NCBI GenBank assembly: GCA_030650425.1
Contig: JAUSED010000005.1
Span: 78,932 to 142,931, forward strand
DNA length: 64,000 bases
Origin: Candidatus Omnitrophota bacterium
GTDB lineage: Bacteria; Omnitrophota; Gorgyraeia; Gygaellales; Profunditerraquicolaceae
Reading direction: 5' to 3'
Made by a program: the position numbers and the translations under genes. Shown here in pieces: positions 6,001 through 21,000 of this stretch (positions are counted from its first letter, which is position 1; each line of letters starts with the position of its first letter). Below the pieces are notes generated by a model, which ran no database searches, was not told the DNA's origin, and saw only the letters and a program-made list of their open reading frames with translations.

Positions 6001-9000
6001 ATAAACTGCATAGTTTAAAGACTCCCCGTTATTCCCGCGCTGCTGAGAGGCAGAAAGAGAGCCTTTTACAGGCTATTGATTTTATCCAGAAATCTCGGCT
6101 GCCCAAAGAGGTTCCGGGGATTGTCAAATATTTTATTGATGAAATTTGCCGTTTATATTTACCTGAAATTGTAAAAAGCCGCGAAGAGGGGACGCTTAAA
6201 GGAGGCTTGCCGCAACAATCTTCCCAGCTTGATCCGGAAAAATTTTTTAGCTCACCGGTGGGTCCCGAGGCCGACTGGCGGCGGGCCAATTTCTTACCCG
6301 AGACCTCACTGCTCTTTACTATCTTTTCACCTCAGGAGCAAAAGATGGCTCTTAAAAGATACAGAATCTTAACTCGGAATATGGCAGGGATTATCCCGGA
6401 GCATAACACGCCAGAAGCAGAAGAAACCATCAAGGCAATTTATCTCTACGGAGGGTATCTGTACCATGGTATCCCGACAGACATGGATATTGCGTTTATC
6501 AAATCGGCGAAGATTTCGGTTGAGAAGGACGCAGGGATTTCTATGCTTGCCCAGCGCCTCGCTGACACGGTAAGGTTCCGCGGAAAGGGGTCAGGTTCTG
6601 TTGAAGCGGAGAGGCGGTTGGGTATGACAGTGAATACCCGCCTTTATCTAACGGCAGCGGAATTATGGAATAGCGGCTATCAACTCAGGATGCCGTCTGG
6701 TCGGGAAATCTTTAATTTTGTCAGTCAATTGGTCTGGCCGACAGGGGGGAAGGGAAGTTATCTCGCGCAGGCGATCCTGGCTTTGAACCTATTGGATAAT
6801 ACGGTCTTGACCCGGCTAGGGCTGACTATGGCCGATGTCAGGTTAGTTTACTATGCCAGGGCCTTTTATCTTACTCAGAACCCGCCAATCGATATCCAAC
6901 AGGTTATGGATATCAATAAAAATGTTTGGTCACTGGTTAAAAAGATGAAATGCCAGTTTGCCAGTTCAGTCGTAAATAGAGGGGGTAGAAAGGATGCCTA
7001 TGGTTGTTTAATGCGAACTTTAGTTTCTCAACAACATAAACCTGGCTCCAGTTCACCGGTGGAGGTTTCATCTTCAATCGAAAGCTATGCCGTTGTGACG
7101 GATACTGAAAATAATTCTATAGTTTTTCTTCCCATAGTAAACGGCCCATATATTAGAAACTATCTTGGCACAAAAATAATTAGGGGATTGATTAAAAGTT
7201 TAGACCAATGGATAGGTTTTAAGATAGGCGGCAGGGAAGTACCCACTAATGAAGAAGAGGTTCTGCGTTGCCAGAAGATTTTAACACGATTCGTAATGCG
7301 TCGGTCAATGGGGGAAATTCCCATCGTGTCATTGCGAGCGAACGAAGTGAGCGAAGCAATCTCGACGAGATTGCTTCGTCGCTGCGCTCCTCGCAATGAC
7401 AAATTCCCTGGATCGCCCCCGTTCACTGACGCATTACCACGATTCATCTCCGAGGAAGGGGGAGAGGCAGTTGATTTGTCGACTAAGGGATTTGAAGTAC
7501 ATCTAGTCTTATCTTCGCAAGAAACTTCGAAAAAACCTAAACATCTATCCATAGAGGCATTTTTGGCAGTTAACCAGGAAGGCTATGTTGTGCTTGAGAT
7601 AGCCCCTTGGAATAAAGCAGGCCGTTATTTAGGCTTGGCCCATCAATTAAGGGTTTTCTTTTTTCAAAACATTTTATTGTGGAAATATGACCTTGGGCTT
7701 AAGGCTGTTTATAATATGATATTTACTGTGAGTTATAAGACTATTAACGGGTTAAAAAGAAGCGTATTTTTACCAAAAGACCTGCCAGACTTTATAGCTT
7801 ACGATCTTCCTCCTGTAAATATAGCGGTGATAGAGTCCTACCTTCTATCGTATCTTGTCAAGGAAACAGAGAGGGTGGCAGAGTTAGTGGTGAGAGACGA
7901 TTTAACGAAGAATAAAAAACGTTCTGGCTCGCCTATCGCGGCCTCATCGGTTGAGTCATCCGTTAACGGAACAGAGGAAACGGCAAGCGCGGAACTAAGA
8001 TCTATACTTCATAGCCTCAAGAATAAGTTTCTTTCGCTTGTATATTTTTCTGGCCTTTTGTTGCGTAAGGCTGGCCCCTTAAGAATCGAAGAGGATATAC
8101 CATTATTGAGACTGTTGCGAAATGTCATTTTTCGTCATCCTGAGCGAAGCGAAGGATCTCGTTATCGACGAGATTCTTCGGCCTTCGGCCTCAGAATGAC
8201 GCAAAGTCGGGCATTTCGCAACAGTCCCTTATTGCAAGCAAACAGCCCAATTTCATCCCCAATGGAGTTTCATATCGAATGGGCAGGGGCGCTTGACCAG
8301 AATCCGAAAGGGATTATCAGCGCGGCGGGCGAAAGATTTAAAATCTATTTTAATCTCGTATTTAGCGAATATTTCACCGCAGAAGAAGTACTGGCATTTT
8401 TTCCCGACCGGCTCAAAATAGAGATGAAGCCAAATTTTTACTACAAAGGAATAATCCTAGTGGATAAAATTCAGGTAGTAAATATTTATTCACCTGCCGG
8501 GGAATGGGCAAGGACTAACGACAGAGAGCAGCCAATCTATCCGGAGACCAAAAGCAAGGCCTTTAGGTTAGAGGTGCCATTTTATACCCATGATTCTTTA
8601 ATATTTGATAACGATATACACTGGGAAAAAAGGGAACTTTTGCTTTTTTCTCTGCTGATTAAATTTAAGCATCAGGGAGAAGAGAAGGTTATTGAACTTG
8701 AAGGGTATGGAAAAAGCGGGGCCGGCATAGTTGGCCTCCATTTACCTGCTGTAGGTTATTTTAGCGAAAGACTTAAGCAAAGGCTAGAGAATCTATACAG
8801 CGATTATTTAGGAGGCATTGAAAAAGATAACGCGATAACTCTCTTAGTGTATTATACGGAGGTATTAAAGATAGAATATGCTAAAGAATTACTGCTAAGG
8901 ATTGCCAAGGATAGCAACCATTTAATCAGAAAGGATTTGGCTGTAAGCTTAAGGCAGCTGTTAGCGCATGATATTCACGCAGAGATTTTAAATGAATTAA

Positions 9001-18000: not shown

Positions 18001-21000
18001 TTGAAGAACTTAAAAGAAGGCAAAACGCATCCGCGATTAAGCCTAGTTTCAGCTCGCCGGTGATACCGCCAGATCGAGGGACACAATGCTTAATTCCGGA
18101 GGAATCCTCTTCTCCAGCTATATTGCCGCCTCTAGCTCCGCAAGAGCCTCTTGTTTATAGCTTTCAAGGCAGAATAGCGTCAAAGACAGAAGCAAATAGG
18201 GCTACGATAATTCGTGATATGACGATCAATGGTGTTTTCGGATTTAAGCTGATTATAGAGGAATATCAACGCGCCAAAAAATATGATCTGCATATCAATG
18301 ATTCCGACAGTTACCCTATTGGCTGGGTAGAATGGGAGTTTAGAGATGAAGTGCCTTATATTATTTTCATCAAGAGAAGGTTTAGCTATAAAGGTAAAGG
18401 ATTATCAGAATTGTTGATGAGGATAACGTTAAAACATATAGAAAAAATTTATGGCCAAAGAGTAGAAGATACAATAGTTGATTCATTTGTTATTTTTTCT
18501 GAATCTAGCATTGCGCGTATAACCGGATTATTACAGCGCCTATGGTTTAGGGCAGCCAAGGAAGATAAAGAAGCGATAAAGTTCCTGAAGTATCTAAAAG
18601 GCCTCCCAGACCCTTTCAGAGTATCTTCAAGTTCTCCTCTGCCCGGAATTCCCGTAACTTCTTCTCCCACAATTTATTCCGAAGATAATCTAAATAATCT
18701 AAGGACACAATCCTTAATTTCAAGTTTTGGAATTAAGTATTGTGTCCCTGGAATTCCTGGAATTCGGGACAATTTAGAAGACAGAATAATCATATATGAT
18801 GTTAACGGAAGAACAAAGATTATGAAAAAAGATATTAGGGCTAGCATAGTTGACATAGATCAGTTGCACCTTACTTCGTCTCAGAATAGATTGAGCGGAG
18901 GCAGATTTGTTGGTTGCACAGCTTGCCTTTTCTGGGATAACAATGCAGGTATCCATGGGTTTCTACATTTATTTCCTGTTCTTACGGCTGCCGAAGATTC
19001 GATCAAAGGCATTATTCCCGCAATAATCAATAATTTTAAGTTTTGGGGAGGGGAAATAAATGATATTGGTTCAGCGCTTATTCTCGCGCAATGTTCACAA
19101 AAAAATATTGCCCAAGTTTTGTTAGAGCAATTAGGAAGAAATACGAAAGTGGTTTTCGAAAATTTAACTGCCGATCCATTCGCAATAAGAAAACAGGAAT
19201 ATATTAATCGTATTAGCATCGAAAGAAATTTATTCTCTATAGACTTGCCTAAAATTCCTAAGCCTTTAATCTTTTCTATGGTTGACAATAAAAATCAATT
19301 CGTTAGTTCGCCTGTTGCTTATATGCCCATATCATCCCGAGGCGCGAGAAGGCACGCGAGATTTTGGCTGTTAATTAGTGTCGCGGAAATGGCGGGATTG
19401 ATGGTTGTGGGTATTTTAAGCCTGAGGGCCATCGGCACAATCGCCTTAATTACTTTGAGCGTATCAGCTATGCTCTATCTTCAGGCAGGTATTTTAAAGA
19501 AATGGGAAGAAATCATTCTGTCTAATCCTATAAGGGCCGGGCCCTTGAAAAAAGTTGCTTATTTCTACCGCTGGTTAGATCGCGTTGAAATTAATCCTGT
19601 CATTCTTGACCAGCAAAAAGGGCTGAAGTTATACTTTTTGTTCCTTCCTCATGAAGTATTCCATAAACTGAATTTAAAGGTCATTAAAACCTTCCGATCA
19701 ATCTTTCCGAGTTACGGGAAGAAGCTATCCGACTCTAAAACTATAGACGCCTTAGATGAATTTGGCGCTTATTTATTAGGCGCCTTTATTCCCGTGATGA
19801 TTTTAACCTTGCCGTTTACCACCTGTATTATCCATGAATCGTATATAAGAAGGGCAGCGCGCACAAATCGTATGCTTGAGGCGCTAAGGGCATTTGACAG
19901 AAAATACGAACAATTGGGCATAGAAGAACTTAATGAGGAAGAGTTTGGAGAATTAGAGCGGGGTATCATTGAAGAGGTTTTAGATGCAAATGTTGATATG
20001 TATTTATGGAATGAGAATGAACCGGTAAATAGCCAGAAAGGCATTGATCTAGACGAAGAGGCGTGGCTGCGCGGTAGTATAGAGCAATATTTTAGCGTCA
20101 ATGATCCTGCCGCAAGGCAGACGATCTTAAATCTTCTTTTAGCAGAAGAGTCAGAATATGAAAGGAAAGGCGGGTTAGGCTGGCGTTGGTTATTTAAATA
20201 TGATTCTTTAGGGAAGCCGGTAGGATTGCTGGGCCTGCATATATTCGATAGAAATAAGCTTCCTCAAGGGGTTATTGCCGGCAGCCTGATTCAGGAAGAG
20301 TCACTATATGGAAAGGGTTATGTAAACGAGATATTGTTCTGGATAACGGATAAGGGAGACAACGGCTTAAGTATATTTAAGATTACAAATTGGCTTAAAA
20401 ATAAGGAAAAGAGGCATCCCAACTACATTATGGATGGGGATACTAATTATTTACTCTTCGCGTTGTCTGAAATTATGCACCGCATAGATGACAAACGGCG
20501 TATTCTTAGGGAGAAGAGCGAATTAAGAGAAGCGGGGATAAAAGATTTGTTAACCGGCGCTTATAACAGAAGGTATTTAGATGAAAGTTTACCCAAGTGG
20601 ATAAGCGAAGCAGAAAAATTTAAGTATTTTTTCAGCCTGTTAATGCTGGACATAGATTTTTTTAAGGGCGTTAATGATACCTACGGCCATCCCGCGGGGG
20701 ATGCCATCTTAAAAGGCATAAGCGAGGAAATTCAACGCACTATGCGAACGGATATATTCAGGCCTTCTGATGTTTCGTTCCGTTACGGAGGGGAGGAGTT
20801 TTGTGTTATTGCAACATCTAATCTTGAAGGGGCAAAGAAGCTGGCTGAAAATATAAGAAAAAATGTAGAAGGGCTTTCTTTTGTGCTGCCGGGAGTTAAA
20901 AAGCCTGTCAAAGTTACGGTAAGCATTGGGGTAACTGAATATAGGCCGGGTGATGATACCCTGGGCGCTTTGATAAAAAGGGCAGACCAGGCCCTATATA

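Follow-up and report, generated by a model that had tools for sequence, protein, structure and literature searches.

Palindromic elements that are read through inside bacterial genes have been described before. According to a review (PMC10969869), the Rickettsia palindromic elements (RPEs) of Ogata et al. (2000) are selfish palindromic elements of about 150 bp that lie in frame within genes, are translated, and leave the host ORF intact. The same review calls in-frame fusions by intragenic ERIC/IRU and other bacterial MITEs "not unusual" (PMC10969869). IS66 duplicates 8 bp of target (PMC6778807), and members of the IS66 family of insertion sequences (IS) have inverted repeats that start GTAAGCGTC..., that of the IS66-family member ISPsk01 starting GTAAGCGTCCGGCGAAC... 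(PMC12888890). In-frame MITE insertions are already known from the RPEs of Rickettsia and from ERIC, and the locus considered here reveals no new mechanism; the case is clear but not very unusual, one of selfish DNA that a coding region tolerates. Hitherto unremarked is an IS66-type MITE family in Omnitrophota that comes with an autonomous partner: our literature search found neither a description of an IS66-derived MITE family like this one nor any reference to MITEs in Omnitrophota, and the giant-gene papers are silent on MITEs and palindromes.

The window, by which we mean the whole 64-kb stretch of DNA that was analysed, is occupied by a giant bacterial ORF on the plus strand, probably of Omnitrophota origin. 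Frame 3 is free of stops over the entire window (positions 3 to 63998, 21,332 codons or more) and stays open at either end of it, and the other five frames hold 802–2021 stops each. Pfam domains are scattered along the ORF (HATPase_c, HD_4/RelA_SpoT, GerE, TPR, GGDEF, HTH_3, Radical_SAM, Metallophos, Peptidase_M48, PrmA, and Lysine_decarbox/SLOG). This ORF hosts an imperfect palindrome of 145 bp at 7293–7437 (plus strand, as are all parts of the element given below), bounded by 22-nt terminal inverted repeats (TIRs) and flanked by a perfect 8-bp duplication.

The left TIR (GTAATGCGTCGGTCAATGGGGG, 7293–7314) and the right TIR (CCCCCGTTCACTGACGCATTAC, 7416–7437) are complementary at 19/22 positions (86%), and the two copies of the target-site duplication (TSD), both CACGATTC, lie at 7285–7292 and 7438–7445. 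A left spacer at 7315–7327 leads from this outer shell to the inner hairpin core, GTCATTGCGAGCGAA...GAAGCAATCTCG A CGAGATTGCTTCG...CTCGCAATGAC, at 7328–7400, whose stems are formed by perfect 12-nt arms (7327–7338/7390–7401) and perfect 13-nt arms (7352–7364/7366–7378), and a right spacer follows at 7401–7415. The preliminary description had reported the palindrome, its inverted repeats, its inner hairpin, and the identical 8-bp flanks, and all of these coordinates and sequences check out. When the window was searched with the TIR pattern at up to 3 mismatches, the two arms were the 2 sites found, compared with 0.00 expected in shuffles, and the element is present there in a single copy. An 8/8 match of flanks at fixed positions has a chance of about 1.5e-5 (4^-8); the palindrome, TIRs, and flanks are far beyond chance expectation. 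The GC content of the element is 54% compared with 42–45% in its flanks, a jump that supports a putative foreign origin of the insert. The fold check suggested earlier for a stable mRNA hairpin gave a predicted RNA structure of −88.1 kcal/mol (z = −11.3), which stands out from background more than any other fold in the window. The only Rfam hit is Atu_L6, whose 19 bits fall far short of its gathering threshold of 100, and nothing relevant was found in Rfam for related copies either. The region between 7000 and 8500 has no terminator-like site, nor is it enriched in promoter-like ones. The left spacer holds an 8-bp repeat, AAATTCCC (7315–7322, second copy at 7401–7408), that was considered as the footprint of a nested insertion around the core. 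It is absent from the 8 other scorable core-bearing copies, and, being found only in the window's copy, it lends no general support to nested insertion.

The insertion starts at a codon boundary, the element together with one TSD copy (7293–7445) measures 153 nt (145 + 8), a multiple of 3, and the window's copy has no stop in frame +0; the giant ORF is therefore predicted to be read through the element with a gain of 51 residues. The insert translates as VMRRSMGEIPIVSLRANEVSEAISTRLLRRCAPRNDKFPGSPPFTDALPRF (VMRR...ALPRF) and stands between ...ILTRF and ISEEGG.... Excision in silico restores ...QKILTRF|ISEEGG..., which verifies the earlier statement that the footprint is a stop-free 51 codons whose removal rejoins the host frame. 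Besides this frame the element has no ORF other than an antisense one, and the in-frame insert peptide has no Pfam match.

Sequences with the same ends were found at 43 loci by TIR pattern, 12 in genomes and 31 in metagenomes. Ten of the 12 genome loci lie in 8 Omnitrophota MAGs, two of which, Yes70-23 (L001 and L009) and RIFCSPLOWO2_12_FULL_51_8 (L007 and L010), carry two copies each, and one complete copy lies in Marinifilum. Viral contigs yielded no TIR copies. Apart from the window's copy there are 19 distinct complete small copies of 71–446 bp, mostly from Omnitrophota, and 13 of the 19 have perfect 8-bp TSDs, every one with a different TSD sequence. The window's copy is 80–86% identical to L043, L014, L002, L025, and L033. 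The element is small, lacks a transposase gene, and has TIRs, a TSD of fixed length, dispersed copies, and TIRs in common with an autonomous IS. The preliminary description had ventured only "MITE-like"; with its ends recurring in 19 complete elements, 13 of them with perfect TSDs, and also bounding a 1.86-kb IS66-family IS, the 145-bp element is, to judge from these sequence traits, a genuine MITE.

The autonomous partner is best seen at locus L019, where 168–2026 (1,859 bp) is bounded by the same TIR and encodes a 455-aa protein with a DUF6788 ORF upstream. This protein matches PF03050 (DDE_Tnp_IS66) at 1.4e-43 and scores 233 bits with the NCBIfam equivalog NF033517, "IS66 family transposase," for which the cut-off is 180 bits. 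The IRL of L019, GTAATGCGTCAGTCAACGGGGG, differs from the window's left TIR at 2/22 positions. A second IS66-family element, L047 (1,860 bp), has perfect TIRs, both of which agree with the right arm of the window's copy at 22/22 positions, and L049 and L050 are more copies of the 1.86-kb IS with the same TIRs. L052 is a variant with the transposase alone, on a contig whose transposase is named Omnitrophota by NCBI. Inward from the tip, the right spacer of the MITE (GGGGGCGATCCAGGG) resembles the subterminal sequence beside the IRL of the autonomous IS (GGGGGCGAACAGGG), a match at 12/18 positions that is modest evidence of relatedness. L036 was considered as a second autonomous element and ruled out; its ORF is an IS110-type transposase. 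All three full-length IS copies with both flanks readable (L019, L047, and L049) lack matching 8-bp flanks, so that support for the 8-bp rule comes from the MITE copies and the literature.

The MITE ends start GTAATGCGTC... and fit the IS66-family trait of inverted repeats of ~20–30 bp beginning with GTAA, and the 8-bp TSD is likewise usual for insertions of this family. The canonical gene order tnpA-tnpB-tnpC is not found in the partner, which consists of a DUF6788 ORF plus transposase or, in L052, of transposase alone; with the canonical three genes absent, the partner is a non-canonical IS66-family member. It presumably resembles the ISBst12 subgroup, which lacks tnpA and tnpB. Compared with the IS66 family at large, the likenesses are ends that begin GTAA..GCGTC as published (PMC12888890), an 8-bp duplication (PMC6778807), a partner with a DDE_Tnp_IS66/NF033517 transposase, and a MITE right end that agrees with the L047 ends at 22/22 positions. 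The differences are that a DUF6788 ORF replaces tnpA/tnpB in a partner of just 1.86 kb and that the interior of the MITE is a separate hairpin module rather than IS sequence.

Like the RPEs as the review presents them, the element is an in-frame palindrome that gives an extra peptide segment, a resemblance that is functional only. It differs from them in host phylum, in that TIRs, an 8-bp TSD, and a transposase family are identified here, and in how seldom it lies in frame: none of the other copies retrieved is surrounded by a long ORF, so that in-frame residence is 1/20 here, whereas the review describes it as frequent in RPEs (PMC10969869). With ERIC/IRU the element shares small size, TIR boundaries, lack of autonomy, long hairpins, and an occasional location inside ORFs; family, TIRs, and hosts are different, and in this instance an ORF longer than 64 kb is read through two unrelated elements within 1 kb.

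The second of these elements is an unrelated palindrome at about 8108–8228 on the plus strand, 0.7 kb downstream, which is read through in the same frame. Its footprint is 126 bp (42 codons), with arms G[A/G]GACTGTTGCGAAATG, a core GTCATCCTGAGCGAAGCGAAGGATCTCG..., and direct repeats TTATTG at 8103–8108 and 8229–8234. The arms include perfect 15-nt stretches at 8110–8124 and 8212–8226, and the predicted RNA fold is −70.4 kcal/mol (z = −9.3). A parent of this element gave no match in the family loci, plasmids, or viral contigs.

A word-indexed search of 5.8 billion proteins with the 600-aa host region gave no match. Exhaustive HMMER with both elements excised from the query gave 7 distant matches, none of which spans either insertion junction, and query residues 415–756 (~340 aa, holding both palindromic elements) are covered by no homologue. 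The pre-insertion site was not found in protein searches or in metagenome contigs with a wobble-degenerate pattern of the 12-codon left flank, and the 64-kb window contains no internal paralogues to stand in for it. An empty-allele junction would read ...TTAACACGATTC joined straight to ATCTCCGAGG....

We consider that the 145-bp palindrome is very probably a non-autonomous IS66-derived MITE that inserted in the giant gene, was tolerated, and is read through. Two 22-bp IS66-family ends built around a hairpin core would make up such a MITE; an IS66-type transposase acting in trans would bind the ends, and insertion into the giant gene would proceed through a cut at CACGATTC with an 8-bp stagger. 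Transposition itself we infer from the footprints. Insertions that break the ORF would be purged by selection, and this copy may have persisted because it left the ORF unbroken and sits where the protein is under little constraint. On the simplest view, the insert would be a tolerated selfish element, with no function implied. Only 8 of 114 frames among family members (7%) are stop-free and no other copy was found in a long ORF, so survival at this site fits selection for ORF continuity; 3 of 19 footprints are divisible by 3. These figures, the second element read through, and the lack of a homologue for the host stretch all fit the earlier proposal that continuity of the ORF is selected and that its local peptide content is only weakly constrained.

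A MITE could also have acquired a role after insertion, the mRNA hairpin acting as a pause, an RNase III site, or a stabiliser, or the 51 residues serving as a linker. The exceptional stability of the structure (−88 kcal/mol), the second hairpin element read through only 0.7 kb away, and the fact that the reading frame used here is open also in L014, L033, and L043 would agree with such a role. We nevertheless judge it improbable, as conservation of the insert was not seen in any orthologue by protein and metagenome-contig searches, the other retrieved copies lie outside long ORFs, and the element shows no terminator-like or excess promoter-like signal between 7000 and 8500, no Rfam family, and no Pfam match, whereas transposition accounts fully for the same sequence features. 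Alternatively, a dispersed repeat could have misled the assembly, through a chimeric join or by collapse of an insertion, so that the element would not truly lie in this gene. The family is multi-copy in metagenomes, and the full-length IS tends to break assemblies: most homologues are on contigs of 1.8–2.4 kb, and the full-length copies have mismatched flanks. Chimeric joining at a repeat of 145 bp would neither make a TSD nor keep the frame, however, and the element has a perfect 8-bp duplication in one frame that stays open over 7 kb on the upstream side and 56 kb on the downstream side, which leaves an artefact highly improbable. Single reads or read pairs would normally span an element of only 145 bp.

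The palindrome might, finally, be native coding sequence, an ancestral repeat or structured gene segment that is palindromic by chance, as the intact frame and the failure to find an empty site would allow. Copies 80–86% identical, with TSDs of their own, occur in many other genomes and metagenomes in unrelated and mostly non-coding contexts, and they are not pieces of homologous giant genes; the element shares its ends with an IS66-family IS, and GC content jumps locally. The idea is already contradicted by the family data, and we give it almost no credence.

Returning to the MITE, its interior deserves separate mention. L014, L025, L033, L043, L002, and L042 also contain this core, which is found without the IS66-type shell in Methylosinus and Halomonas; the 3′ half of the core matches gut phage contigs at ~92% identity. 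These occurrences bear out the earlier recognition of the inner core as a widespread hairpin repeat. Its tips are conserved (GTCAT...ATGAC), changes in its stem are compensated (subtypes TTGCGAG, GCCCGCG, TCCCGC, CCTGAG, and TCTGAG), and it is dispersed in many copies across phyla: cores of this kind are present in Omnitrophota, Alpha- and Gammaproteobacteria, and gut phage contigs. Their shells differ, being IS66-type here, of another type in the second element (8108–8228), and of a third type in L001. Searches of the literature with literal core sequences returned unrelated primer matches only. As short dispersed hairpins with conserved tips and compensated stems, the cores are like REP/REPIN sequences, which are mobilised by RAYT, and they are unlike them in being carried in a DDE-transposon shell and in having no GTAG head. 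REPs typically have such a head. It is conceivable, though on balance doubtful, that the GTCAT...ATGAC cores form a cross-phylum superfamily that is independently mobile or exchangeable and rides in different transposon shells. If so, the 145-bp element would be a two-layer composite, a hairpin passenger within a MITE, and giant Omnitrophota ORFs would be sites where such composites turn into coding sequence.

Overall, an ORF longer than 64 kb has apparently been struck by transposable elements and retains only frame-preserving insertions, which provides indirect evidence of selection maintaining the continuity of the giant gene. The two insertions also mark a stretch of ~340 residues where the peptide apparently varies freely, and the insertion could serve as a polymorphism marker for strain-level work at giant-gene loci. 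Knowledge of the MITE family should be useful for annotation because its hairpins can give rise to spurious ORFs and interrupt assemblies. A 130-aa antisense ORF at 7160–7552 on the minus strand, whose middle part is encoded by the element as the preliminary description had noted, has no Pfam match and, inside a 64-kb open frame, is probably spurious. This ORF weakly favours the further claim that the core often creates spurious small ORFs, but "often" was not confirmed: the insert-frame peptide, the single frame searched, matched only one 66-aa ORF among 5.8 billion proteins. For locating copies of the MITE, the sequence string is GTAATGCGTCNGTNAANGGGGG.

The palindrome at window positions 7293–7437 is built exactly as the preliminary description had it, with terminal inverted repeats (TIRs), inner stems, and 8-nt flanking repeats all located within 7285–7445. 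Its 22-nt TIRs (7293–7314 and 7416–7437), which we call the shell, are complementary at 19 of 22 positions and enclose perfect inner stems of 12 nt (7327–7338/7390–7401) and 13 nt (7352–7364/7366–7378). The 8-nt direct repeat CACGATTC (7285–7292 and 7438–7445) directly adjoins both ends. With up to three mismatches allowed, the TIR pattern has an expectation of 0.00 in shuffled sequence and is found in the window only as these two arms; the signal is not due to chance. A fold energy of −88.1 kcal/mol (z = −11.3) was computed for the 161-nt segment, and a 160-nt sliding fold places the element as the strongest outlier of the whole window (GC-corrected z of −8.2). Its GC content is 54% versus 42–45% in the flanking kilobases. 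The antisense 130-residue ORF at 7160–7552 is present, its center encoded by the element. An internal 8-bp direct repeat, AAATTCCC (7315–7322 and 7401–7408), lies on both sides of the inner hairpin, or core (plus 5 nt); considering its own spacers only, p is about 0.005. No other family member compared carries such a repeat, which could be the footprint of a nested insertion or a chance occurrence.

Copies of the shell are found well beyond this contig. The pattern GTAATGCGTCNGTNAANGGGGG, which fits both arms, occurs at 12 loci in GTDB genomes (one genome scanned per species), 10 of them in eight different Omnitrophota MAGs. Another, in a Marinifilum (Bacteroidota) MAG (locus L011, 1674–1849), is a complete shell with both TIRs, a perfect target-site duplication (TSD) TCATACGG, and a different interior, so the shell is not confined to Omnitrophota. 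A locus in an Oscillospiraceae MAG is a probable chance match, with the second arm absent. The same pattern gave 31 further loci in metagenome contigs, and extraction left 19 distinct complete small elements of 71–446 bp. Perfect 8-bp direct repeats, each of different sequence, flank 13 of the 19, against a chance expectation of about 0.0003 for 19 copies by arithmetic. Over its full length, the flagged element shares 80–86% identity with L043, L014, L002, L025, and L033, which come from independent samples. These matches and flanking repeats together establish a dispersed TIR-bounded family that generates 8-bp TSDs. At one locus (L036, 40–1711), an IS110-family transposase (DEDD_Tnp_IS110 plus Transposase_20) is enclosed by a pair of IS66-type TIR-like ends spaced 1,672 bp apart, an arrangement that resembles insertion of an IS110 element into or beside a MITE or IS end.

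The shell is common to the family members and their interiors differ. Some carry the core of the flagged element, GTCATTGCGAG...GAAGCAATC, and others have GTCATGCCCGCGAAAGCGGGCATCCAG-type or different hairpins; the core of L007 is truncated, and L010 is a 71-bp shell without a core. The preliminary description had recognized the core as a widespread bacterial hairpin, and this holds: the same type occurs without the shell on plasmid pOB3b1 of Methylosinus trichosporium, as a hairpin in the intergenic space that separates convergent genes, and as adjacent copies in one Halomonas replicon, and gut phage contigs match only its 3′ half, at about 92% identity. The accompanying remark, that spurious small ORFs frequently arise from it, found little support, the in-frame peptide having matched a single 66-residue ORF. 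Among the fetched loci, GTCAT...ATGAC hairpins are seen within IS66 shells, within other TIR shells (L001, 5869–6049), and apparently alone, with cores at L001 5921–5996 and 7502–7591, L003 1977–2042, L010 917–1048, L043 5891–5970, L045 153–232, and L044 150–345. Such cores make up a superfamily spanning Omnitrophota, Methylosinus, and Halomonas, with the compensated stem subtypes TTGCGAG, GCCCGCG, TCCCGC, CCTGAG, and TCTGAG.

Next to the TIR, some loci have promoter, ribosome-binding site, and ATG-like sequence in place of a hairpin. One of these (L019, 168–2026) is a unit of 1,859 bp with ends GTAATGCGTCAGTCAACGGGGG and CCCCCGTTGACTGACGCAGTAC that encodes a 106-residue DUF6788 ORF and a 455-residue ORF; the latter is a match to Pfam DDE_Tnp_IS66 (1.4e-43) and scores 233 bits against NCBIfam NF033517, “IS66 family transposase,” for which the cut-off is 180. 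At E ≤ 1e-40, relatives of this transposase number 3,953, mostly on contigs of 1.8–2.4 kb, as expected of an assembly-breaking multicopy IS. Among the relatives fetched, a 1,860-bp copy in NCBI assembly GCA_041643275.1 (L047, 2542–4401) has perfect TIRs identical at 22 of 22 positions to the right arm of the flagged element, and further 1,859-bp copies occur in L049 (379–2237) and L050. A 1,555-bp variant with a single ORF (L052), on a contig whose protein is Omnitrophota-named at NCBI, has a TIR four mismatches from the reference L019 IRL. MITE–IS similarity reaches slightly past the TIR, as seen between the right end in the window (GGGGGCGATCCAGGG) and the L047 IRL (GGGGGCGAACAGGG), which is modest evidence.

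The shared TIRs, the published IS66-family ends, which begin GTAAGCGTC... (PMC12888890), and the 8-bp duplications that IS66 makes (PMC6778807) all mark the flagged element as an IS66-family-type MITE. Its autonomous partner has the DUF6788 ORF upstream in place of tnpA/tnpB (L019, L047, and L049) and is thus a noncanonical IS66-family member. Unlike the MITE derivatives, all three readable full-length IS copies (L019, L047, and L049) lack matching 8-bp flanks. Assembly across, or collapse of, a multicopy IS may account for the mismatch, as may recombination between copies, which is documented for IS66 (PMC6778807). From the shared ends and footprints we infer transposition in trans: an IS66-type DDE transposase would act on the element ends, and the flanking duplication would come from cutting the target with an 8-bp stagger.

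The insertion lies in a frame (+ frame 3) that is stop-free across the whole window (21,332 codons) and open at both ends; the remaining five frames have 802–2021 stops each. The element begins with the first base of a codon, has no stop in this frame, and with one repeat copy adds 153 nt, or 51 codons; its conceptual excision gives back ...QKILTRF|ISEEGG.... Tolerance of the insertion reflects arithmetic (length and stop-free frame) and position. Because (length + 8) is divisible by 3 in only three of the 19 other members, and stops interrupt all but 8 of their 114 frames, we estimate that roughly 1–4% of random insertions would keep an ORF open. No long ORF surrounds any of these 19 copies, the longest open stretch through one being 522 nt.

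A second palindrome, the MITE-like element 2 (about 8108–8228), lies 0.7 kb downstream and is translated in the same frame, as ...PLLRLLRNVIFRHPERSEGSRYRRDSSAFGLRMTQSRAFRNSPLL... It has perfect 15-nt arms GACTGTTGCGAAATG, written G[A/G]GACTGTTGCGAAATG, and a GTCATCCTGAG-type core, GTCATCCTGAGCGAAGCGAAGGATCTCG...; TTATTG direct repeats around it (8103–8234) are 126 bp, or 42 codons, apart. Its fold energy is −70.4 kcal/mol (z = −9.3), and apart from the two elements the 64 kb has no strong folding outlier. The ends of element 2 are unrelated to those of the flagged element, and fetched loci, plasmids, and viral contigs yielded no relatives of it. Both elements keep the frame, as expected if frame-breaking insertions in the giant gene are purged, which supports the earlier proposal that continuity of the ORF is under selection and the local segment is not. 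A domesticated function for the flagged element has low probability: no terminator-like signal, excess of promoter-like signal, or Rfam match was found.

The stretch of about 340 residues holding both elements has no Pfam domain and no match in a word-indexed protein search. An exhaustive HMMER search of 1.84 billion representatives gave seven matches, none covering query residues 415–756; one distant relative (P0002) shares a module with the giant ORF that starts just past element 2. One distant relative of an upstream module is annotated as coming from a Candidatus Omnitrophica MAG, in agreement with the host range of the MITE family and the giant genes published for this phylum.

Palindromic mobile elements in frame within genes are established, among them Rickettsia RPEs and intragenic ERIC, which the flagged element resembles in this respect, and fusions of this kind are described as “not unusual” in a 2024 review (PMC10969869). 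What is new here is an Omnitrophota family whose IS66-type shell holds swappable hairpin cores, the identified autonomous partner of that family, and the setting of such an element inside a giant gene, of which the giant-gene literature searched makes no mention.

The ORF itself, at least 21,332 codons (3–63998), is a chain of many domains unrelated to one another and mostly of cytoplasmic type: HATPase_c, HD_4 plus RelA_SpoT, GerE, TPR, GGDEF, several HTH_3/HTH_31, Radical_SAM, Metallophos, Peptidase_M48, two PrmA-like methyltransferases, and two Lysine_decarbox/SLOG (LOG/SLOG) domains, with long stretches lacking any domain match. Serine-rich motifs (SSSP, SGSP, and SPISSP among them) occur ahead of several modules. 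Also inside this frame, at about 18700–18750, is a small AT-rich hairpin, GGACACAATCCTTAATTTCAAG...TTGGAATTAAGTATTGTGTCC, with flanking GGAATTCC repeats (z = −4.8 in 150-nt context), which could be another short palindromic insertion.
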